DNA of 63,172 nucleotides, filler included, from an uncultured bacterium (GTDB taxonomy: Bacteria; DAOPZR01): assembly GCA_964637655.1 (NCBI GenBank). It is 10 parts of 10 records of this genome, joined end to end, with 100 filler letters (N's around TTAATTAATTAA, not from the genome) between each part and the next. Parts side by side here need not be neighbours in the genome. Positions count along the whole stretch, not along the records: positions 6,454 to 12,803 come from CAZWUZ010000227.1; 9 more parts are not named here. The stretch is one strand, 5' to 3'. Shown here piece after piece: positions 3,431 through 12,928 of the stretch. A model generated the notes under the pieces. It was not told the DNA's origin. It did no database searches and saw nothing but the letters and a program-made list of their open reading frames with translations. Position numbers and translations under genes: made by a program. Position 1 is the first letter of the stretch. Every line of letters starts with the position of its first letter.

Positions 3431-4741
3431 CTACGCCGGCAAGGCCCGCACCACTTTGCGTGCCCAGCAGCCGGCAAGCAGGGGATCAATCAGGTTGGCG
3501 GCCAGGTATACCATCATCACCATGGCGAAAGTGGGCACGATGATTCCTGCCTGCACCAGCAGAAAGAACGGCAGGATGATGCCGAAGTTGGTAATAATCC
3601 CGAGGTAGAAGACATACCGTGTCTGGCCGGTCCCGTAAAAGATGCTGCGGAGCACATTCCCGACACCAAACCCGACAAAACCGAAGATCAGCACGGAAAA
3701 GGACGCGACTGACCAGTCGACAATTGCCGGGTTCGGGTTCAGGAATAACGAAACGGGGCGCCACCAGAAGGTTCCGGTGGCAACTACGGTGAACGAATAT
3801 CCCATCACCAGCAGCAGCGAGATTTTCATGCTGCCTGTCAGTTCGCCGTACCGTTTCGCGCCGGCGTAATTCCCGACGAGAATGCTGGTTCCCTGCGTGA
3901 TGGCAAAGAACGGCATGAGCAGTATCCAGAAGATCCACGTGGCGATACCGAAACCGCCGTATTCATCCGCCCCGATGCCGTTCAGCATCATCAGGATCCA
4001 TGCCACCCCGATCATCCGGATCGCCGTTTCCAGGCCGCTCCACCCCCCGATCCGCCAGAGCGGGACAACCTCCCGGCGCCAGGCCGCCGCGCGCAGGGTC
4101 GGACCATCGATTTGCAGGAGCGAAAACAGATAGACGGCGGCAATCACCATGAGCACGATTTGGGTGACGAAATACGCGAGCACCACGCCCGGGAGACCCA
4201 GGTGCAGGGAGAGCGGCGTGGTGGAGATCAGGAACAGGTCGAGGAGAATATTCAGCCCGATCGACAGCGCCACCAGCAGGAACGCCTCCCGCCCTTTGTG
4301 CAGGGACTTGATCGCGATGAGGAGCATATAGGCCGCCATATCGCAGGGGATGGTCAGCGCGCGCAGCACGAGGTATGTCCGGGTCGGGTGCACGAGCGCG
4401 TCGGGTGTCCCGATAATGCCGGGCAGCCTCTCAGCGAAACAGACAATGAGTGCCGTCAGCATGAGCGCGAGCGCGACCTGCATGATCAATCCGGCTTTGA
4501 TGATGGCAATGACTTTTTCGCGGTGCTGATGGTGCCGGGCAATAAGCGCCAGGGCCCCGAGCGGAATCGTGGCCATGAGCACCTCGATGGCCAGTTCGAT
4601 GAATTCATTCTGCTCGGTGATGGCAAACGCCTCCGCGCTGATGCGCCCGATCCAGAACAAATTGAACAGCGTGTAGAGCTGGGGGACGAGATTGGCGAGG
4701 ACGAGGAACCCCATGAACCGCCAGGGGTAATCGCGGGTCAT
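3431..4741 (-). CDS. MATE family efflux transporter / flippase
   Basis: About 12 TM segments, NILLDLFLI and LGLPGV, SILVGNYAGAK, two-fold internal repeat. Confidence 0.8.
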   Translation of the reverse strand: MTRDYPWRFMGFLVLANLVPQLYTLFNLFWIGRISAEAFAITEQNEFIELAIEVLMATIPLGALALIARHHQHREKVIAIIKAGLIMQVALALMLTALIVCFAERLPGIIGTPDALVHPTRTYLVLRALTIPCDMAAYMLLIAIKSLHKGREAFLLVALSIGLNILLDLFLISTTPLSLHLGLPGVVLAYFVTQIVLMVIAAVYLFSLLQIDGPTLRAAAWRREVVPLWRIGGWSGLETAIRMIGVAWILMMLNGIGADEYGGFGIATWIFWILLMPFFAITQGTSILVGNYAGAKRYGELTGSMKISLLLVMGYSFTVVATGTFWWRPVSLFLNPNPAIVDWSVASFSVLIFGFVGFGVGNVLRSIFYGTGQTRYVFYLGIITNFGIILPFFLLVQAGIIVPTFAMVMMVYLAANLIDPLLAGCWARKVVRALPA

Positions 4742-4871
4742 GCGTGCCGGCTGATGGCAACTGCGGGCGTACTCCGTCCCGTTTTCACCGTCAGGTGCGG
4801 CTTGCCGCCGGAGCGTTCCCCCGCGACCGTATCCTCCACCCTGACGCCATGCATGACGCGCGCTGCCGCGC

Positions 4872-6053
4872 CTACAGGATGACCGGGGACCGGAAAAACA
4901 TCGACGTATCCACGTCCGAATCGTAGCGTTCGAACTTCTGTTCCTTCTCCCGCCAGAACGCCGCGAAATCGCGCTCCGGGTAGTACCCGAGGCAGGTGGT
5001 AAACCGCCGCATGAATGCCGCACAGTGCTCGGGATGCCCGTCGCGCCGGGCGATGAACGCGCGCGTCAGATAGGCCAGTGTCGAGAACGTGCTGGCGACG
5101 ATGGCAATGCCCGAACGGTGGTAGTACTCCTTGAGCAGATGCTGCAGCAGGTGCTGCGTGGTCAGGTAATTGATGCGCTGCCCCGCCTGTTTCTCCTCGC
5201 GCTGAAAGCCCACGGGCAGGGAGAAGAGTTCGGTCTGCCCGCGGTAGGCGACCTCGAGCAGCATCGGCTCGTACGGCTCACGGAAGGCGGCGGGATTCTC
5301 GTCGAGTTTCCGGTAGCGCGGGATTTTGCACCGGCACCGCATCATCTCGCCGGCAAAATCGTCGATGATTTCCAGGTGCAGTTTCTCACCCGCCTCGTCG
5401 TAGCGCGACCCGGCGAGCATGAGCAGCGAGGTGCGGCGGTTTTCCCAGAACATCTCCAGGCCGCAGAGCGCGTAGCCGAGCGCCTCGGCGATATGGTGGC
5501 AGAGGTAGTTGGTGTTCATCACCTCGTAAAAGAGGCGGAGTTTGCCGCTGTCCTGCGCCGCCTCGTGCAGCAGCACGCCGCGCACCTGCTCGAGAAACTG
5601 GTCGCGCTGGCACAGGTCACCCTTGCTGCCGCAGAAGCGGCGGCTGAGGTAGAGATCGGTGATCTGCAGGGGCGTCTCGCGCAGCGTGTAGGGCGCATGG
5701 CGCCGGCGCGGTTTCACCTGCACGGTCAGCAGGATGGGCGTCTGGTAGCGCACCCGCTCTGCCGCGAAGACCCCGGGCCCGAAGCTGTTGATCTGGCACG
5801 AGAGGAGCTGGAAGACATCGTGGTCGAGCCGGTTGACCATGACGAACCCGACCCGCCCGTAAATCGTTTCGGTCGCCTCCGGCGCGGGGATGGCGAGAAA
5901 CGCATCCGTAAACGTCTCGAATTCCTCTTCGCTGATCGCCCGCCCGTACCTCCCGTCGAGCAGTGTCCCGGCAGCCGCGCGGAACGCCGCGAACTGCCCG
6001 GACATAATCACCTGCCCCGAAGCCAGCACCTGCTCTGTATCCGTACGTTTCAC
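4872..6053 (-). CDS. Hypothetical cytoplasmic protein (~393 aa)
   Basis: Long ORF with high-GC3 codon usage; GGAG RBS before GTG 6053; TTGACG-17-TAGGAT promoter upstream; no family recognised. Confidence 0.7.
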   Translation of the reverse strand: MKRTDTEQVLASGQVIMSGQFAAFRAAAGTLLDGRYGRAISEEEFETFTDAFLAIPAPEATETIYGRVGFVMVNRLDHDVFQLLSCQINSFGPGVFAAERVRYQTPILLTVQVKPRRRHAPYTLRETPLQITDLYLSRRFCGSKGDLCQRDQFLEQVRGVLLHEAAQDSGKLRLFYEVMNTNYLCHHIAEALGYALCGLEMFWENRRTSLLMLAGSRYDEAGEKLHLEIIDDFAGEMMRCRCKIPRYRKLDENPAAFREPYEPMLLEVAYRGQTELFSLPVGFQREEKQAGQRINYLTTQHLLQHLLKEYYHRSGIAIVASTFSTLAYLTRAFIARRDGHPEHCAAFMRRFTTCLGYYPERDFAAFWREKEQKFERYDSDVDTSMFFRSPVIL

Positions 6054-6353: not shown

Positions 6354-6453
6354 NNNNNNNNNNNNNNNNNNNNNNNNNNNNNNNNNNNNNNNNNNNNTTA
6401 ATTAATTAANNNNNNNNNNNNNNNNNNNNNNNNNNNNNNNNNNNNNNNNNNNN
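6354..6453. other. Artificial contig linker; same at 12804-12903, 19234-19333, 25621-25720, 31964-32063, 38283-38382, 44581-44680, 50827-50926, 57011-57110
   Basis: Identical 100-bp N/TTAATTAATTAA/N blocks with stops in all six frames; genes are cut at many of them. Confidence 0.99.
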
Positions 6454-7825
6454 AGCGCACCAGAAAACCCGTTGCTTCGTCGCCCGCGAATTTTTGCTTG
6501 CCCGCCGCGGCGGCAAAAATTCCCGTCAACCATTCGTAGGTCGGCTGGTTATACCAAGCCGCCATCAACACCGGCGGCAGGGACTCGAGGCCGGGTTCAC
6601 CAGACGTAAGCATCAGGCAGCGAATCATCTCGCCACCGGCAGGCGTGAGTGGAATCTTGCAGGCAAACTGAACGATCCGTGCCAGATTGGCGGGGTTCTT
6701 CTCCATCAGGTAGAGCAGTTTGACCGAATCGTAATCCTGCCGGGTCAGCAATTCCAGTTTGACCGCCGCCCATACCAGTTCGAACCGTCCGGGATTGGCA
6801 AAGGCAGCGACGCGACAGCGCTCCCGCAACGCTTCCATATTCGCCGCTGCCGGTACGGCAAAATCAGCGTTTCGTTCATCAAGATGAAGGCCGGCCATTT
6901 CCTGGTTGATTTCCTCTTCGATGCCGGGCGGGCTGGCCGGAATGAGTTCGGGATACAGGCGTGCTTGCGGACCCAATCCGCTGCGTATCTTCTCCTGCAT
7001 TATCCCCAGTTGTCCCTCCGGCAGGGCGGCCAGCAATTCCAATATCAGGCAGGGCCGCTCCTGCAACGACTGTTCCCACCGCATCCGCGACAGATTCCGC
7101 GTCCCGTCGGGTTCCGCTACGGTCTGCGACCACTCCGGCCGGGAGCGCATTTCGCGAAAATAAATAAACCGCAAAAGCGGGTTGGACGAATTCCCGGCGT
7201 CTTCCACCCGTTCCTCGCCCCCGGCATCCCAGGCGCCAAAGATTCGATGGGGACGGAAATCAATCGAATCCTCGAGAAAACCACGCCAGGAAAGATTCCC
7301 GGGTTGCGCTTGCAGATATTGCTGCGCCTGGCGCCGGCCCTCATCTTCAAGTTCCCTGATCCGTCTCTCGGCAATCGCAGCCGGAGTCGCTTCGCCGGAT
7401 GCTTCTGGCGGGCTGACCGCGTCGGGAACGGGGAAATTGCCATCGGTCAGCAGGCGCGCGGTGCGGCTGACCACGCTGTCCGGGTCGTCCAGCCAATGGA
7501 CGATCAGCTGCTTTTCTTCCGCCGTCAGGGAGAAATCGCATGCCGGCGACGTCCTGGCCGCAAAAACCCCGGCTTGGCAATATAAAATCATCCAGCGCGG
7601 ATCATCCGCCGCCAGCATCTGCTGTTTCAGCCGGTTCACCGTGTCCTGGTTGAGAGAAATATCCGGCGGATTTTGCTCGTAGGCAAATGTGCGTTGAGGA
7701 TAGAATATCCGGTTCAACCACACCCCCCCCGAACGGGCGAAAAATATCGCCACCAGCAGGAGCAGTGCCGGAAACATCACGATGCCGGCCGGATGTCTGA
7801 TCCCCGCAATCCTGATATTCAGCAC
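6454..7825 (-). CDS. Hypothetical membrane-anchored, probably helical protein (3' partial)
   Basis: Long ORF running into the gap; N-terminal hydrophobic stretch IVMFPALLLLVAIFF. Confidence 0.65.
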
Positions 7826-7950
7826 AACCGGTCGCGCCGCCCGCGGGAGTTTTTTCGTTTCGCCATGGCCTGTCCCATTCCATTCATCAGTTGACGGTAT
7901 TGTATCATCACGGCCGGAATCAGTCGACCGCCGGCATCGGTTGGCACGGT

Positions 7951-10443
7951 CTATTCCGGCCGGAAACTGGTGGCGGTTTGCGTTGGCACGCCCGCGGTGT
8001 CAGTGCCGCCGACGATAAACACCTCATTGCCCAAGGTCACCGCCGACAGTTGCGCCCGCGGCGCGGGCATCCGCGAAATCACAGTCCACTGGTTCTGGTC
8101 CGGCTCATACCTTTCCACCGTGTCCAGCAGTTTTTCCGATTCTCCCCAGCCGCCAAACACGTATATCCTGCCATTGAACACCACCGCTCCCTGGGTGAAT
8201 CCGCCGCGGCGCTGTTGCAGGGGCGCCATCATTTCCCAGCGATCAGCCTGCGGATCGTAGCGTTCGACTGAATCAAGATAGCCCGTCCCGGAATTCTTTC
8301 CGCCAATGACGTAGATTTTTCCGTTCAAGGATACCGCAGCGGCCTCATGCCGCGGAATCAATAGCGGTGCAGCGATCCGCCACGTCCCGCTGCTCAGGGT
8401 ATATGCCTCAACCAGGCCCGGGGTCGGGTTCGCCTGCCCGGCGCAGGTGCCGCCGATTACATAGATATCATCGTTCACCGCGGCCACCGTGAAATTTTCG
8501 CGCTCGCGCGTCAGGCGCGTAAGTTTGCGGCTTCTTTCCGGCCGGTGCGCCACTTCACCTGACAGGCCTGGCACATATTCAATAATGTCATTCTGCCGGT
8601 TTCCCTGGGCATTGCTGCCACCGACAAAATACAGTTTCCCGTCAACCACCACCGGCAGGGCGCCGACCCGACAATCATTCCCCTCCAGAAGCAGATCGGA
8701 ATCAACCTGCCAGCGTCGGGTGCCGGGATCGTACCATTCGATATCCGCCAACAGCGAGCGGGCATCATCACGCGCGCCCCTGTTTCCTCCCCATTGGTAT
8801 GAAAGGCAATAACCGCCGAATACCAGCAGTTTGCCTTCCAGCACTGCCGCCGCCACGCCCGCCCGGGGCCAATGCAATATTTTTCTGCGCGTCCAGCGCG
8901 CATCATTCGCCGGCAATTCCACCTGTCGGTTGGTTGGTTGCGACGCCACCGGGACGCGCGCCACCGGGGCCGGGGCGGGGCGCAGCAGGTAATAGAGGCC
9001 AAACACCGCCAGCAGGACCGGAGCGGCCAGTTTGAGCACCGCCAGCAGACGTTTTCCCATCCGCCGGCCGCCCACCGGCAACACGCCCAGCACGGACGTT
9101 TCCATCTTCGCCCGCCGCTGGCGCGCCAGCAGCAGGTCCGCGTTGTGCCGCATCTCCACGCTCAGCACCTCCCGCGACTTGAACTCCTGCTGCGCCAGTT
9201 TCACCACCTGCTCCGACTCGCCCGCCTCATTATCCAACTGTTCCGCCCGGTCTTTTGCCTCCAGCTTGGCAGCGAGATGCCGGCGCATCTGGCCTTCGTC
9301 ATTCGCTGTGTGCGCCTCTTCCGCCGCTTTTTCCCATTCCCGCATACTCGCCCGCGCTTCGTCCGCCCGCGCACGCACCCGGTTTTGCAGCAGCGTCGCC
9401 TCCTCCAGCCGCCGCCGTGCTTTTCCTGTCTCCTGCTCCGCCGCGGCGATTTCGTCGCGTATCCGCAGCGCGATCAGCTCCGTCCGGCCAAACGCCTCCA
9501 GCCACTGGTAACGATACCAGCTCGTCAGCCGCGTCCACGCCCGCTTCCAGCCCGGCACCCGGTGACGCCCGAGATCATGGTCGATCGGTTCATATACCGC
9601 TGCAAACTCCAGCGGAATATCCTCGCCTCGTTCCCATCTTTCGATATCCGCGAAAACCGCCTGGCAATCCGCGTAGCGGTTCGCCGGCGCACACGCCAGC
9701 AGGCGCGCCAGCATCCCGTCCGCCTGCGGCGGCAAACCCGCGACCAGTTTCGACGCCAGCGGATAGGTCCCGCACTTGTGCGCCTTGAGCAGTGCCAGCG
9801 GGGTCGCCCCCGCGAACGGGAAGCAGCCCGTCAGCATCCGGTACAGCACCACGCCCGCCGCGTACAGGTCGGATTGCCGGGACGCGCTGCCGCCCTGCCC
9901 CAGCTCGGGCGCCAGATATTCCAGCGTGCCCAATATCTCACTCGACCGGGTGAGCGTCACCTCACCCTCCACGATCCGCGCCAGGCCGAAATCCGCCAGT
10001 TTCACCGTATCCGTCGCCGTTTCAATCAGAATATTGCCCGGTTTGAGGTCGCGATGGATGATCCTCTGCTCATGCGCCATGCCCAAACTGGCGAGAATCT
10101 GTTTGAAATAGCACAGCGTTTTATCAATCGGCAAAGGCCGTTGCAGAAGATCGCGCAGCGCGCATCCGGGCACATATTCCATCGCCAGGTAGTAATATCC
10201 GGCCACCGCCCCCACATCGTAAATCGCCACAATATTCGGGTGGCGCAGCCGCGCCACCGCGCGCGCTTCGCGCTCGAAGCGCGCCACCGCGACCGGCTGC
10301 TCCGCCAGTTGCGGCCACAGAACTTTCAGCGCCACCTCACGGTCGAGGCGGGTGTCGCGGGCGCGATACACCTTGCCCATCGCCCCGCTGCCGAGTTCCG
10401 CTAACAACTCGTAATGTCCGATCCGGTTTTTGTTTCCACTCAC
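7951..10443 (-). CDS. Hanks-type Ser/Thr kinase - PspA/IM30-like coiled coil - TM - Kelch propeller
   Basis: GSGAMGKVY, VALK, HRDLKPGN, DFGLAR, APE; coiled coil ~9091-9549; TM LAAPVLLAVFGLYYLL; Kelch repeats IYVIGG...VERYDP...W. Confidence 0.92.
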   Translation of the reverse strand: MSGNKNRIGHYELLAELGSGAMGKVYRARDTRLDREVALKVLWPQLAEQPVAVARFEREARAVARLRHPNIVAIYDVGAVAGYYYLAMEYVPGCALRDLLQRPLPIDKTLCYFKQILASLGMAHEQRIIHRDLKPGNILIETATDTVKLADFGLARIVEGEVTLTRSSEILGTLEYLAPELGQGGSASRQSDLYAAGVVLYRMLTGCFPFAGATPLALLKAHKCGTYPLASKLVAGLPPQADGMLARLLACAPANRYADCQAVFADIERWERGEDIPLEFAAVYEPIDHDLGRHRVPGWKRAWTRLTSWYRYQWLEAFGRTELIALRIRDEIAAAEQETGKARRRLEEATLLQNRVRARADEARASMREWEKAAEEAHTANDEGQMRRHLAAKLEAKDRAEQLDNEAGESEQVVKLAQQEFKSREVLSVEMRHNADLLLARQRRAKMETSVLGVLPVGGRRMGKRLLAVLKLAAPVLLAVFGLYYLLRPAPAPVARVPVASQPTNRQVELPANDARWTRRKILHWPRAGVAAAVLEGKLLVFGGYCLSYQWGGNRGARDDARSLLADIEWYDPGTRRWQVDSDLLLEGNDCRVGALPVVVDGKLYFVGGSNAQGNRQNDIIEYVPGLSGEVAHRPERSRKLTRLTRERENFTVAAVNDDIYVIGGTCAGQANPTPGLVEAYTLSSGTWRIAAPLLIPRHEAAAVSLNGKIYVIGGKNSGTGYLDSVERYDPQADRWEMMAPLQQRRGGFTQGAVVFNGRIYVFGGWGESEKLLDTVERYEPDQNQWTVISRMPAPRAQLSAVTLGNEVFIVGGTDTAGVPTQTATSFRPE

Positions 10444-12803
10444 AGGCTTCTTACCCTTTCAAGCACGCTGCCCAAGAGACCGGCTTGGTATGCACTATTC
10501 CGCTCCTGAACGAGCGGTATTTCATTGGAACCATCAATCAGACTGATAAAGTTGCCCGCTTCTGCTGAACAATCATACTTGCCTGCTGGCGTAACCACAG
10601 CCCAATTGTTCTGCGGCAAAAATATCACTGTGGCTATCAGTCGTCCGGACAGCAAGTCCCAAATACAAATCGTACCATCTTCGCTGGCAGAAAAAAGATA
10701 ATCCCCGGTTTCACTCATCGCAAGCGAATTTATCCTGCCCGTATGACCGCGCAGTGTTCTTGTTACATTCAATTTGTCGGGATCCCATATTTTTATCACT
10801 CCGTCGTTACTTCCCGTAACGACAATCCAGCGATGCCCGATAAATTCGACAGCGGTAATCATGTCGTCATGCTCGGTGAAAACGCCTGTTTGTTTGGTGC
10901 CATTATTGAGAACAAGGTATACATAAGCACGAATTATTTTACCATCTGCGGTTCTTGGCGAGTCATTTCCCGCCGCAATTACCAGGCGTCGGCTTGTACT
11001 TTGAAATGCTGATATTCCGGTATATGGGGCATTGACCAATACCAACTGGTCATTGATAAATGCGCTTGTGTCCCGAGTCGTATCGCCAATGGCGATAAGG
11101 CGACCCATCATGTCGATGTGCGTTGTAATAATGATGTTGCCACGCGGGTCATGGAAACTAGCCAGTAGCTTGTCAGAATTATATTCAAACACGTTGGTAA
11201 TGTTGTTTGTCGACCGGGTGACCATACCACTACCATGTGCGGCACCAAAACTTCGATGAAGCGAACCAAAGGAAAACGCCACTATATCGCCTTCGTTCCT
11301 GTAAAACGACCGTTGCCGAATATCTTCTTGTGTATGATTTCGATTGTTAGCATCATCATACGCCACAGCCCAGACAGGTCGAATTCTATCTGGAGTATTC
11401 TTATTAAAGTCATGAAACAGACTTTCCATATTACTAAATAGACCCAAACCCCTGAGCGTGCCATCGGCTAACCCGGCCATTAGAAGTCGATCTCTGCCAA
11501 TGGCAATCGCCTTGACGACTGTGAATGTGCCCGTGAAATTCCGTTGTATTTCATGGCGGGGAGATGATGAAGTTCGTGTAGTTACTGATACCGCCGGTCT
11601 TTCCGGAAGTGGATACCTGTGCTCCGCCCACCACCATCCACCCACAACAACCGCCCCCAGCGGCCCAAACAATACTAAAGTTGCCATCATCCGCTCTGCC
11701 AACCGCCGTTTATTTGCCGGCAAGAGACCCAAAACCGACATTTCTATCTTGAGACGCCGGCGACGCGCCATGAGCAAGTCCGCATTATACCGCAATTCCT
11801 GGCTAGTGGCCGCCTGTTCCTCGAACTGGCGGCGCGCTAAATCCACAACTTTTTCCGACTCAGCCGCCTCCTTCTCCAAGTCTTCTGCCCGTTCCTTTTC
11901 CTCCGATTTCACCACCAGGCACTCGCGCACCTTTTGTTCGTCATTTGCTTCATGCGCCTTCTCCACATCTGTTTCGCATTCTCGCAGTGCCACCCGACAC
12001 GCATCTGCTTTCGCTCGCACCCGGTTCCGCAGTACGGTCGCCTCTTCCAGCCGGCGTCGTGCTGTTCCCAGGTTCTGTTCCGCCGCTGTCACCTCGTTCC
12101 GCAACCGGATTGCGGTCAATTCAGTTCGGTCGAATACTTCCAGCCACTGGTATCGGACCCGGGACGTTACCAAAGACCACGTTCGTTTCCATTGCGGAAT
12201 CCGATGTCGCTCAAGTTGGTGATCAATCGGCTCGTATGGCGTCGCTAACTCCTGCGAAATCGACTTTCCCCTTTCCCAACGTTCGATATCCGCGAGAACT
12301 GACTGACAGTCCGCATACCGGTTCGCGGGCTCACACGCCAGCAATCGCGCCAACACCGCATCCGCCTGCTGCGGCAGTTTCGGTACAATCGTCGTCGCCA
12401 GTGGATAGGTTCCGCACTCATGCGCTTCCAGTATTGCCGCTGAAGTCGCGCCCGCAAAGGGTAGTCGTCCTGTCAGTAAGCGGAACAGGACCACCCCTGC
12501 CGCGTATAGGTCGGATTGCCGGGAAGCACTCTCGCCCCGTGTCAGTTCTGGTGCCATGTACTCAATCGTGCCGAGCATTTCGCCTGATTGCGTAACCGAG
12601 TTTTCTTCTTCGATGATCCGCGCCAAGCCGAAATCAGCCAGTTTTACCGTATCAGTCGCTGACTCGATCAGGATATTCCCCGGTTTTAGATCACGATGGA
12701 TAACACCCAACTCGTGTGCTGCACCCAATCCGGCCAGAATCTGCTTGAAATAACGCAGGGCTTTATCGATCGGCAAAGGCTGTTTTAGCCGTTCCCGCAG
12801 CGA
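10440..12803 (-). CDS. Hanks-type Ser/Thr kinase - PspA/IM30-like coiled coil - TM - WD40 propeller (5' partial)
   Basis: HRDLKPGN, DFGLAR, APE; closely paralogous to the downstream kinase; WD40 motifs TGSNDGVIKIWD, GHTGRINSL, SASEDGTICIWD; stop overlaps the next GTG. Confidence 0.9.
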   Translation of the reverse strand, partial: SLRERLKQPLPIDKALRYFKQILAGLGAAHELGVIHRDLKPGNILIESATDTVKLADFGLARIIEEENSVTQSGEMLGTIEYMAPELTRGESASRQSDLYAAGVVLFRLLTGRLPFAGATSAAILEAHECGTYPLATTIVPKLPQQADAVLARLLACEPANRYADCQSVLADIERWERGKSISQELATPYEPIDHQLERHRIPQWKRTWSLVTSRVRYQWLEVFDRTELTAIRLRNEVTAAEQNLGTARRRLEEATVLRNRVRAKADACRVALRECETDVEKAHEANDEQKVRECLVVKSEEKERAEDLEKEAAESEKVVDLARRQFEEQAATSQELRYNADLLMARRRRLKIEMSVLGLLPANKRRLAERMMATLVLFGPLGAVVVGGWWWAEHRYPLPERPAVSVTTRTSSSPRHEIQRNFTGTFTVVKAIAIGRDRLLMAGLADGTLRGLGLFSNMESLFHDFNKNTPDRIRPVWAVAYDDANNRNHTQEDIRQRSFYRNEGDIVAFSFGSLHRSFGAAHGSGMVTRSTNNITNVFEYNSDKLLASFHDPRGNIIITTHIDMMGRLIAIGDTTRDTSAFINDQLVLVNAPYTGISAFQSTSRRLVIAAGNDSPRTADGKIIRAYVYLVLNNGTKQTGVFTEHDDMITAVEFIGHRWIVVTGSNDGVIKIWDPDKLNVTRTLRGHTGRINSLAMSETGDYLFSASEDGTICIWDLLSGRLIATVIFLPQNNWAVVTPAGKYDCSAEAGNFISLIDGSNEIPLVQERNSAYQAGLLGSVLERVRSL

Positions 12804-12928
12804 NNNNNNNNNNNNNNNNNNNNNNNNNNNNNNNNNNNNNNNNNNNNTTAATTAATTAANNNNNNNNNNNNNNNNNNNNNNNNNNNNNNNNNNNNNNNNN
12901 NNNTACCGTCACCGTCCGCAGCATCGCC

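Follow-up and report, generated by a model that had tools for sequence, protein, structure and literature searches.

Two overlapping genes of an uncultured bacterium, K4 and K5, encode two of the five paralogous single-pass receptor Ser/Thr kinases (Hanks-type, as judged from sequence) of its genome, and in each the linker between kinase and membrane is, on profile comparisons and predicted folds, a true PspA/Vipp1 homologue comprising helices alpha0-alpha3. The family to which they belong has probably diversified by replacement of its ectodomains, and its paralogues may feed different outside cues into one Psp-linked output. The window, meaning the whole stretch of 63,172 nucleotides analysed, is ten contigs of one MAG joined via N spacers, and the ‘host’ with which parts of it are compared is the other contigs of the same MAG. 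The features concerned are these.

6454..7825, minus strand: P0003, the ORF downstream of K5; 457 codons, its 3′ end lost at the contig end
7951..10443, minus strand: K5, a complete receptor Ser/Thr kinase with a Kelch ectodomain; 830 aa, beginning with GTG at 10441-10443
7954..8988, minus strand: K5 Pro-rich stalk and Kelch beta-propeller ectodomain; Kelch_1 E 2e-55 in 5 stretches, GC 0.603
8989..9057, minus strand: K5 TM helix, from the AF2 model and hydropathy
9058..9651, minus strand: K5 linker and PspA/Vipp1-like module; an alpha0-like helix rich in Trp and Arg, followed by a long hairpin
9652..10443, minus strand: K5 Hanks-type kinase domain; Pfam Pkinase E 5e-49, with G-loop, VALK, HRDLKPGN, DFG and APE
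10440..12803, minus strand: K4, a receptor Ser/Thr kinase with a WD40 ectodomain; 787 codons visible, TGA stop at 10440-10442
10443..11627, minus strand: K4 predicted extracytoplasmic WD40-type beta-propeller, from Pfam and AF2 with Foldseek; GC 0.467, GC3 0.442
11628..11702, minus strand: K4 single TM helix, from hydropathy; aa about 368-392, R/K on the N-terminal side
11703..12293, minus strand: K4 juxta-kinase linker and PspA/Vipp1-like alpha0-alpha3 helical hairpin, from alignments and the family profile against PspA
12294..12803, minus strand: K4 kinase C-lobe; Pfam Pkinase E 2e-33 over profile positions 93-253, with HRDLKPGN, DFG and APE
12804..12903, no strand: artificial spacer N44-TTAATTAATTAA-N44, non-biological; an identical spacer is at 6354-6453

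K4 and K5 lie on the minus strand of contig C227 (window 6454-12803; 6,350 bp) and, as the window consists of joined contigs, 12803 is a contig end and the absent 5′ end of K4, about 94 codons of kinase N-lobe, is simply unassembled. The overlap of the two genes is 4 nt, GTGA at 10440-10443, where the GTG start of K5 lies over the TGA stop of K4. The original prediction, of two coupled genes with a common kinase, PspA-like segment, linkers and TM helix followed by WD40 in one and Kelch in the other, is borne out: by BLASTP 255 of 415 positions are identical (61%; E 6e-173; K5 residues 95 to 503), the linker peptides quoted in it are present in both proteins, and the similarity stops just past the TM helix, nothing later beating E=12. 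Both kinases exceed the Pfam cut-off for Pkinase of 31.7, K5 with 167.4 bits and K4, represented by its C-lobe only, with 116.2. The five catalytic motifs (G-loop, VAIK Lys, HRD..N, DFG, APE) are complete in K1, K2, K3, K5 and the kinase of a relative; K4 has HRD, DFG and APE, its N-lobe lying off the contig. The best NCBIfam kinase match, PknB_PASTA_kin, involves the kinase domain only and, at 312.9 bits, is under its cut-off of 450. On the far side of the membrane helix, Kelch_1 of Pfam scores 184.4 bits in K5 (cut-off 20.1, 5 stretches) and WD40 scores 67.1 bits in K4 (cut-off 27, E 1e-18), there with just 2 canonical repeats. The AF2 model of the K4 ectodomain (388 aa) is all-beta and of low confidence (pLDDT 58, pTM 0.63), and its Foldseek matches are 7-8-blade WD40 propellers throughout, over 336-368 columns. 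As it follows the TM helix, this propeller is predicted to be extracytoplasmic, and the topology would be kinase inside, sensor outside. P0003, downstream, has a hydrophobic segment at its N-terminus; it belongs to no Pfam or NCBIfam family and has a weak HEAT-repeat lead alone from Atlas. Scans of C227 for sigma-70 promoters (4 vs 2.6 in shuffles) and terminators (8 vs 6.5 in shuffles) gave counts not above those of the shuffles.

How far does the family extend? It does reach beyond the contig, as was suspected from the two genes: three further paralogues, K1, K2 and K3, are on contig C96 of the same bin, and the closest paralogues of K4 and K5 (up to 74% identity) are there. Members have, from N- to C-terminus, the kinase, a conserved juxta-kinase stretch, PspA/Vipp1 alpha0-alpha3, a TM helix preceded by Arg/Lys, and a variable domain. 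In this genome the latter is Kelch in three of the five genes (including K1 and K5), WD40 in K4, and LamG-like; the sole family-level relative has one gene, with LamG. Seven Pkinase matches were found in the genome, five of them in this family. A possible sixth member on contig C313 was rejected, its kinase being only 37-42% identical to that of K5, like that of an unrelated TPR-kinase on C188. Thirteen family sequences are known, five from this genome, one from the relative and seven that are metagenomic and kinase-bearing or fragmentary, and one more metagenomic sequence has the PspA-like part and TM only. The distant members add beta-helix and FG-GAP ectodomains, and at least five unrelated ectodomain classes are found on one conserved kinase/PspA-like/TM module. 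Identity of the inner module among close members is 59-73%, and the outer domains are either unrelated or, within one type, 31-38% identical. The initial idea of a modular receptor family with exchangeable domains has thus gained in substance, the more so as the tree is incongruent with ectodomain type (see below). A search among 1.84e9 representatives gave 10 matches at E<=1e-3 and, as 2 of these are from this genome, 8 further sequences. The family is rare, being present in 2 of 41 genomes searched; a species-genome scan for it found the relative's contig only, and a word-index search with the linker returned, among at most 8,000 candidates, this genome's own three complete proteins only. 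A metagenome-contig scan for the DNA of the distant members gave no match, and a second such scan gave one 23-residue match that was dismissed as chance, the ORFs on that contig being unrelated.

What was initially termed a ‘PspA-like segment’ has proved truly homologous to PspA, and no feature of the family is more unusual. With hhalign against a 34-sequence PspA alignment the probability is 96.3% (E 1.9e-9, 148 columns), linker residues 38-185 aligning with PspA 3-150; against this genome's own PspA the family profile gives 86.6% (E 4.5e-6). A 12-sequence family profile compared with PDB had 18 matches at E<=1; the top 13 consist entirely of Vipp1/PspA/IM30 (E 3e-9 to 1e-4), with the alignment covering Vipp1 residues 17-156. 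The claim of homology is based on these larger profiles, a six-sequence hhalign having given 18% probability. In the AF2 model the K5 linker forms helices 34-115 and 119-187, with pLDDT >90 over about 70-170; the top 17 Foldseek matches of the modelled hairpin are all Vipp1/PspA, and its fit to 4whe, E. coli PspA(1-144), has TM 0.75 and rmsd 2.0 A. Scores for PF04012 (PspA_IM30) are below the gathering cut-off of 33.9 bits in K5 (21.0), K4 (18.8) and K3 (19.4); one of the ten family proteins scanned passes it (P0137, 49.8 bits) and three others are at 32.0-33.4. The alignments end at PspA ~150-156 with the TM helix within about 15 residues, so PspA alpha4-alpha6 are absent and, because of that, the module cannot be a complete ESCRT-III-type subunit; it is filed as a PspA-derived domain and not as PspA. 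The available passages of two surveys (PMC11237479, PMC9239133) put single-domain proteins at over 98% of PspA homologues, name as fusions only NlpC/P60, PspAA and tandem PspA, and mean histidine kinases where they speak of kinases. Nor, in the passages of the literature searched, was a Ser/Thr kinase fused to PspA found reported.

The genomic setting of the C96 paralogues is suggestive in its own right. On one strand of that contig are pspF, a sigma-54-type -24/-12 element (TGGCAC-N6-TGC) upstream of pspA, pspA itself, an ORF of 87 codons (ORF87) and then K1, K2 and K3, with gaps of 20-190 nt in the pspF-pspA-ORF87-kinase array. The pspF/promoter/pspA/ORF87 unit is kept in the one relative, where kinase and pspA are on separate contigs, an arrangement compatible with adjacency; the psp linkage of the family is accordingly that of two related genomes. 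C227 has no sigma-54 motif, and it ends on both sides of the K4-K5 pair with no pspA seen. A look for RNA runs that contain the locus turned up none. The 644-aa ORF between K2 and K3 has no family in Pfam or NCBIfam and no Atlas lead, and there is no homology between it and P0003. In the preferred reading the paralogues would pass different extracytoplasmic cues to one common inner output, most likely the Psp membrane-stress response, because their inner part copies the membrane- and PspF-binding piece of PspA and three genes of the family follow pspA in a putative psp operon; on these grounds we infer a role for the family in that response.

Could the helical linker instead be a dimerising stalk or structural spacer, the psp neighbourhood being incidental and the targets of the kinase being outside the Psp system? 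The module lacks the alpha4-alpha6 that PspA/Vipp1 polymers need, deletions at the hairpin tip are tolerated (45 residues in K2, 35 in P0132), the PspA_IM30 scores in the window's genes are under the cut-off, pspA is not seen beside K4 and K5, and coiled-coil signalling helices of other receptors offer a parallel. However, the best-conserved linker columns are at the start of alpha0/alpha1 and the end of alpha3, with invariant W, R, Q, E and T columns and no generic heptad pattern; furthermore the psp unit is kept in both genomes, with three kinase genes directly after it here, and the concentration of the genome's Pkinase matches in this one family also speaks against a stalk, which we hold to be unlikely. 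If the Psp output is favoured, the tethered PspA-like hairpin could either serve as a dock for PspA or PspF or respond to stress in the inner leaflet, and the kinase could phosphorylate a Psp component or itself. Passages of two papers are pertinent: PspA(1-144) binds the W56 loop of PspF (PMC6003685), and the N-terminal amphipathic helix of PspA binds stressed membranes (PMC4556811). A more specific version, which we put forward only tentatively, is that the hairpin at the inner leaflet serves as a nucleation or docking site for PspA or as a decoy for PspF, and that, on ligand or damage, PspA or PspF is released or phosphorylated through the action of the kinase. As a docking site, the hairpin would accept PspA subunits in the manner of an ESCRT-III hairpin; as a decoy, it would, while membrane-bound, hold PspF as PspA(1-144) does. 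The trigger would be an outside ligand, or damage sensed via alpha0. A complex prediction that paired the K1 hairpin with this genome's PspA scored 0.00 against a mark of 0.32 and speaks neither way.

That ectodomains are exchangeable is supported by the relationships of the inner modules since, on their tree, the Kelch-bearers as a single clade are rejected (AU p=0.0068) and the relative's kinase, though nearest to K1 (72%), has a LamG ectodomain and not Kelch. Two related tests fall short of 0.05, that of the LamG pair as a clade on the same tree (AU p=0.060) and that on the Kelch ectodomains (p=0.068), and the inner-module tree, of 11 taxa, comes close to a star in shape, only 2 of its 8 inner branches being well supported. 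The 3′ part of the gene, coding for the ectodomain, would have been replaced at a breakpoint just past the TM helix. WD40, Kelch, LamG, beta-helix and FG-GAP are not mutually derivable by divergence, from which at least four replacements follow. They are not ongoing: inner modules at the DNA level are only 66-77% identical, and 48-60% at third positions, which makes the exchanges old. Recent gene conversion among the paralogues was ruled out by that divergence, the longest exact match being 15-44 nt, and by the absence of recent exchange tracts. The same figures are what one would expect of old, fixed paralogues inherited vertically, whose secreted domains evolve fast and owe their low GC to AT-biased mutation and to selection that is relaxed or diversifying. 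To that account also belong the presence of a LamG-type member in both genomes, the far greater divergence of same-type ectodomains than of inner modules, and an outer GC below inner GC in five of five genes. What divergence does not provide is a route from one of the five folds to another; nor does the account foresee the scattering of Kelch over the tree, LamG in the relative's gene nearest K1, or the unevenness among genes of the step in GC, sharp in K4 and K3, where it falls on the boundary of the modules (change-point LRT 24 and 41), and weak in K1 and K5 (5 and 7). We give it rather a low probability, and the replacement of ectodomains remains the preferred reading.

From where could the replacing sequences have come? 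Some ectodomains may have been drawn from modules found also on membrane-anchored proteins, other than kinases, that this genome encodes, specifically LamG, for which there are non-kinase paralogues on contigs C160 and C181, and one Kelch type, as non-kinase Kelch proteins on C81 group with the Kelch of K1 (support 100/99). The AT-rich WD40 and LamG parts were possibly drawn from foreign DNA. The AT-richness that had been noticed in the WD40 half is real, its GC being 0.467 vs 0.567 in the inner part of K4, and atypical of the genome, where 1.1-kb windows have a mean of 0.655 (sd 0.051) with 1.4% of them below 0.48; GC3 of the WD40 half is 0.44 vs a mean of 0.755 in long ORFs. The maximum-likelihood change point in K4 is at codon 404 (~window 11591), about 12 codons past the TM helix. 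Other low-GC islands of the genome carry genes for restriction specificity (two HsdS), ThiF/E2, patatin and a MORC-like ATPase. This compositional break, with the defence-type genes in low-GC islands elsewhere, suggests a lateral origin of the AT-rich ectodomains. The lateral acquisition in the original prediction stays a suggestion only. In its favour is the GC break at the boundary, in K4 and also in K3. Against it, none of the 228 matches from a search for a donor of the WD40 domain is a close relative; they are WD40 proteins of a generic kind that cover it in part (local identity 24-46%, coverage below 70% in most), and the domain has no paralogue in this genome or the relative. Also against it are the non-kinase LamG and Kelch paralogues just mentioned, and the age of the kinase paralogues, in which recent exchange tracts are absent.

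An import of a different extent has to be weighed, namely that a stretch beginning with the K3 ectodomain and taking in all of K4 arrived from a lower-GC relative by homologous recombination anchored on the inner modules. K3 and K4 are GC3-poor in their inner modules too (0.65 and 0.60 vs 0.75-0.79 in K1 and K5), K3 is truncated by the start of C96, and K4 by the end of C227, in orientations that permit the order K3, gap, K4, K5, and the genes in the low-GC islands are typical of a transferable pool. Yet the adjacency of C96 and C227 is hypothetical, a significant step in GC at the TM boundary within both K4 and K3 is unexpected for a uniformly foreign cassette, and no lower-GC carrier of the family is known, the 8 other sequences having been found without DNA. 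We consider such an event improbable, and similarly doubt that the foreign unit was a gene cassette rather than a bare sensor domain. Actually, is the mosaic K4 real at all? The MAG is fragmented (485 contigs, 3.6% contamination), C227 has a GC (0.58) under the mean of the genome, and depth in public runs is only 2-7x, so a chimeric join or a contig from another organism comes to mind. However, a single open frame of 787 codons crosses the junction with TM, stalk and propeller in the expected order, K3 on another contig has the same GC pattern, and the nearest paralogues, on C96, are in the same bin. In addition, a 356-nt contig from run X3 spans 11426-11781, across the breakpoint, with zero differences, and a 589-nt contig from run X2 crosses the K4/K5 junction, though either run may be the source sample and so non-independent. 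A further per-run contig continues 98 nt past 12803. An artefact is very improbable.

The closest known systems each share a part of this design. PspA/Vipp1 (IM30), of the bacterial ESCRT-III superfamily, has the same amphipathic alpha0 helix and alpha1-alpha2/3 hairpin and the same predicted fold, but goes on to alpha4-alpha6 where the K family has a TM helix, its module being between kinase and ectodomain. PknD of M. tuberculosis, whose sensor is an NHL propeller, and the PknB/Stk1-type PASTA kinases also have an N-terminal Hanks kinase, one TM helix and a C-terminal extracytoplasmic domain. Their juxtamembrane linker is short and unstructured, whereas the K family has the PspA-like hairpin, lacks PASTA and NHL domains, and is expanded in tandem with differing sensors in one genome. 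PknD is described as a receptor Ser/Thr kinase in the passage available of PMC1847690. Kinases of the PkwA type (Thermomonospora curvata) likewise combine a Ser/Thr kinase with a C-terminal WD40 propeller, and many proteins named ‘WD40 repeat protein/serine/threonine protein kinase’ are among the WD40 search matches, none of them with the PspA-like linker. The K4 ectodomain has 5yzv, a solved prokaryotic WD40 domain (Thermomonospora in the entry title) which we take to be PkwA, among its best structural matches; the propeller of K4, in contrast to that of the PkwA type, comes after a TM helix and so is predicted outside the cytoplasm.

If only the ordinary part of the above is true, this is another lineage-specific expansion of modular receptor kinases. 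Even so, it is a compact example from nature of sensors being exchanged while the signalling chassis stays the same, with five paralogues and three sensor folds in one genome. The breakpoint can be located to about a dozen codons from the membrane helix, which could help in designing chimeric receptors for bacteria. Should the docking or decoy reading hold, the phage-shock response would here be ligand-gated and phosphorylation-coupled, with tandem interchangeable sensors. In the passages of the literature searched, a hybrid of a eukaryote-like receptor kinase with the ESCRT-III family of membrane repair was not found described. A kinase whose own chain includes the part of PspA that binds PspF and membranes, and whose gene stands in a putative psp operon, is a concrete candidate wiring, with a bearing on how PspA-type systems outside the proteobacterial PspBC and firmicute LiaFSR circuits may sense stress, and on possible control of bacterial ESCRT-III-like proteins by phosphorylation. 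As to evolutionary mode, there is an analogy, and it is one of mode only, with type I restriction HsdS, where a conserved frame also bears swappable recognition domains; though HsdS is unrelated to the K family in protein family and function, two HsdS genes of this genome, like the K4 ectodomain, are in stretches of low GC.

What becomes of the kinase pair when its locus is read within its own contig? The 63,172-base window is ten contigs of ~6.3 kb chained by spacers, so the 'end' of K4 at 12803 is a contig end and the 'host' composition used in the original prediction came from the bin's other contigs; features that seem to end at, or cross, the spacer points are artefacts of concatenation. 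The locus itself lies on a single contig, C227 (window 6454-12803), which is filled by three minus-strand ORFs.

Window 10440-12803, minus: K4, receptor Ser/Thr kinase gene, 787 codons, without its 5′ end
Window 7951-10443, minus: K5, neighbouring receptor Ser/Thr kinase gene, 830 aa
Window 6454-7825, minus: P0003, ORF without assigned family, without its 3′ end
Window 6354-6453, 12804-12903 and seven more places: spacers, N44-TTAATTAATTAA-N44

The GTG start of K5 is on the TGA stop of K4 (GTGA), the classic layout of translationally coupled genes. BLASTP aligns K5 95-503 with K4 1-415 (255 of 415 residues identical, 61%, E 6e-173) and gives no alignment beyond K5 503 and K4 415; Pfam identifies Pkinase and five Kelch motifs in K5, and the kinase C-lobe and two canonical WD40 repeats in K4, so that the reading of a common part followed by divergence into Kelch and WD40 was correct. 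The AF2 model of the K4 ectodomain, the C-terminal outer sensor domain, is all-beta and of low confidence (pLDDT 58, pTM 0.63); its structural matches are all 7-8-blade WD40 propellers and span 336-368 of its 388 residues. Is the mosaic an assembly error? The separate assembly of one public run contains a 356-nt contig that covers 11426-11781 with zero differences, and a second such contig bridges the K4/K5 junction, which argues that the mosaic did not arise when the MAG was assembled; the public runs may be the source sample, and so their support is not independent.

Above the propeller swap itself, the most interesting feature is the PspA-like module between kinase and TM helix, together with its psp context. 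PspA_IM30 is below the Pfam cut-off in the window's own genes (21.0 and 18.8 versus 33.9 bits), P0137, a distant family member, alone passing it at 49.8 bits, and a six-sequence linker profile reached 18% only in hhalign. With 12 sequences, 18 PDB sequences were matched at E≤1, the best 13 all being Vipp1/PspA/IM30 (E 3e-9 to 1e-4); the linker profile gave 86.6% against the genome's own PspA and 96.3% (E 1.9e-9) against a 34-sequence PspA alignment, linker 38-185 corresponding to PspA 3-150. The AF2 model of the linker is a long hairpin (helices 34-115 and 119-187, core pLDDT >90), whose 17 best Foldseek matches are all Vipp1/PspA, among them the E. coli PspA(1-144) crystal structure at TM 0.75 and rmsd 2.0 Å. 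From the profile and fold matches, the module is α0 plus the α1-α2/3 hairpin; α4-α6 of PspA are absent and the TM helix is in their place. The most conserved linker columns are a Trp/Arg-rich helix aligned to α0, the α1 start and the α3 end. There is natural shortening at the hairpin tip, where 45 residues are missing in K2, a paralogue, and 35 in metagenomic P0132, deletions that a hairpin can tolerate. Judged by profile and predicted fold, the linker, earlier called 'PspA-like', is a true PspA homologue, the distant members in the profile being decisive.

The suspicion that the family extends beyond the contig proved right, as a six-frame search of the whole genome yielded five paralogues, three of them, K1, K2 and K3, on contig C96 (locus L015). 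There a relA/spoT-type 3′ end is followed, on one strand and in this order, by the first eight features listed, with intergenic gaps of 20-190 nt from the psp genes to K3; the last two are from the sole family-level relative.

C96: pspF, PspF-type sigma-54 activator with AAA+ and HTH, without a receiver domain
L015 10311-10325, minus: sigma-54-type -24/-12 element TGGCAC-N6-TGC, 43 nt before pspA
C96: pspA, Pfam 141.5 bits
L015 9289-9552, minus: ORF87, 87 codons, between pspA and the first kinase gene
C96: K1, Kelch ectodomain, 839 aa
L015 4250-6676, minus: K2, Kelch ectodomain, 809 aa
C96: unassigned ORF, 644 aa, between K2 and K3
C96: K3, truncated at the contig start, ≥687 aa, LamG-like ectodomain
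L034 (C106 of the relative) 4756-4770, plus: sigma-54-type -24/-12 element TGGCAC-N6-TGC before pspA
L034 5529-5789, plus: ORF87 homologue

The element is 43-50 nt ahead of pspA across both genomes, with one match per locus versus 0.17 and 0.06 expected by chance. ORF87, kept in both genomes, is helical-looking and without a Pfam family, and may be a partner or a substrate of this system. The relative's contig carries pspF, the same motif, pspA and the ORF87 homologue and stops there, a layout compatible with pspA-ORF87-kinase adjacency; its one family member, with a LamG-like ectodomain, is on a separate 2.5-kb contig starting at about kinase residue 10. The outer domain of K3 is concanavalin/LamG-like, with a weak score in Pfam itself. 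All complete members have the complete set of kinase motifs, and each member has exactly one hydrophobic helix with Arg/Lys before it; the topology predicted from sequence is kinase inside and sensor outside. This family provides five of the genome's seven Pkinase matches. Elsewhere, on C188, a TPR-repeat Ser/Thr kinase unrelated to the family, its kinase C-terminal (L016 3863-6382, plus), is directly followed by an FHA-GAF-cyclase protein (L016 6384-7688, plus), the two likely being a phospho-dependent signalling pair; the TPR-kinase has an orthologue on C122 of the relative.

The linker profile, run exhaustively with HMMER against 1.84 billion representative proteins, matched 10 of them at E≤1e-3, including K1 and K2. 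Eight distant members, all metagenome proteins, were typed by Pfam.

P0132: 803 aa, Kelch
P0133: 1085 aa, DUF1565/beta-helix
P0134: 583 aa, short C-terminus
P0135: 1055 aa, beta-helix
P0136: 230 aa, PspA-like module and TM helix only
P0137: 919 aa, FG-GAP
P0138: 323 aa, fragment with DUF1565
P0139: 104 aa, fragment

Among 41 genomes searched the module was found in two, this MAG (3.99 Mb, 485 contigs, 90.6% complete, 3.6% contaminated, GC 0.655) and the family-level relative; the other 39 are related at domain level only, and so the lineage is deep and very sparsely sampled.

The presence of five unrelated folds on a single chassis by itself calls for replacement events. In a maximum-likelihood tree of the inner module, i.e., kinase, PspA-like linker and TM helix (11 sequences, 484 columns), the seven close members are a 100/100 clade, nearly star-like inside, on which ectodomain types are scattered. 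A tree constrained to hold the four Kelch-bearers as a single clade is rejected (AU p=0.0068), and one that pairs the two LamG-bearers gives a borderline result (p=0.060). The inner module of the relative is nearest that of K1 (72% versus 59-65% to others) and, despite this closeness, carries LamG where K1 has Kelch. Exchangeability of the ectodomains, as proposed, is thereby supported. From where might the sensors come? The K1 Kelch groups (100/99) not with those of K2, K5 and P0132 but with two TM-anchored non-kinase Kelch proteins, which points to sensor modules common to other envelope proteins of the same genome; the Kelch-domain test falls short of formally rejecting one clade of all kinase-borne Kelch domains (p=0.068). 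The LamG-like domain of K3 has homologues in three non-kinase proteins scoring above the Laminin_G_3 cut-off, and the relative's LamG ectodomain shares 45% identity with the C160 copies versus 35% with K3.

C81 5018-6283 and 6184-7470, plus: neighbouring TM-anchored non-kinase Kelch proteins
L026 (C160) 3600-4505 and 4571-5470, minus: non-kinase LamG-like proteins
L027 (C181) 172-2643, plus: non-kinase LamG-like protein

The exchanges are not recent, as inner modules have a DNA identity of 66-77%, 48-60% at third positions, with longest exact matches of 15-44 nt.

Receptor Ser/Thr kinases of modular build (PknD, PknB, PkwA-like) are familiar, and tandem expansion with unlike sensors varies that theme. 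What may be new is a PspA/ESCRT-III-derived domain within a psp-operon-encoded Ser/Thr kinase, of which we did not find a published description. Full-text literature searches gave nothing relevant, and the words Kelch, WD40 and propeller do not occur in a bacterial STK atlas preprint, where 'PSPA' stands solely for a peptide array. The kinase passages of two systematic Psp surveys (PMC11237479, PMC9239133), whose supplementary tables and web resources could list rare architectures, concern histidine kinases only, and according to one of the surveys >98% of PspA homologues are single-domain.

How might such receptors work? To the observed domain order, homologies, C96 operon arrangement and conserved promoter motif a tentative scheme may be added. 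Kelch, LamG, beta-helix and FG-GAP folds typically bind carbohydrates or proteins, and the different ectodomains would recognise different extracytoplasmic ligands. The tethered PspA-like module may dock PspA or PspF, or report inner-leaflet stress via its α0-like helix; PspA(1-144) is described as the fragment binding the W56 loop of PspF (PMC6003685), and binding to stressed membranes as mediated by the N-terminal amphipathic helix (PMC4556811). The kinase would pass the signal on through phosphorylation and, as the receptor genes stand behind a PspF-dependent promoter, stress would induce the receptors too.

Were the propellers also 'laterally acquired'? The WD40 half is AT-rich, as had been noticed.

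K4 ectodomain: GC 0.467, GC3 0.442
K4 inner part: GC 0.567, GC3 0.598
Genome, 1.1-kb windows: GC mean 0.655, sd 0.051

Only 1.4% of such genome windows have GC <0.48. The best single GC change point in K4 is codon 404 (~window 11591), twelve codons past the TM helix (LRT 24); the step is sharper in K3, where it is at codon 458, the TM helix start (GC 0.60 to 0.45, LRT 41), and in K1 and K5 it is weak. Across the genome there are 56 low-GC islands (GC <0.50 over 900 bp; 110 kb in total), e.g., C103:270-1625, C176:5366-6589, C9:14663-16444, C9:12680-13696 and C17:11774-13681. In a Pfam scan of 20 further islands, each represented by its largest ORF, 10 had families (two HsdS specificity subunits, two MORC-like ATPases, ThiF with Prok-E2_B (prokaryotic E2), patatin, a methyltransferase, an amidase domain, a beta-helix segment and a Cu_amine_oxidN1 domain) and 10 had none; the islands are probably a defence and accessory, transferable gene pool. 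That pool, and a GC step at the module boundary in K4 and K3, argue for lateral origin of the WD40 part. Against it, a search of 5.8 billion clustered proteins, capped at 8,000 candidates, listed generic WD40 matches only and no donor or close homologue, no copy is present in the relative (90% complete), the K3 and K4 inner modules are also somewhat GC-poor, and in all five paralogues the ectodomain is GC-poorer than its own inner module; low ectodomain GC might reflect fast evolution of secreted domains. The chance that the WD40 part is of lateral origin is close to even. The original prediction was borne out in its observation and in part in its interpretation, exchange being supported and lateral acquisition suggested. 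A within-gene mosaic like that of K3 and K4 is also seen in two giant open frames of 5,983 codons (C8 16461-34409, plus) and 3,371 codons (C17 17928-28040, plus), each with a markedly lower GC over its first ~800 codons than over the remainder.
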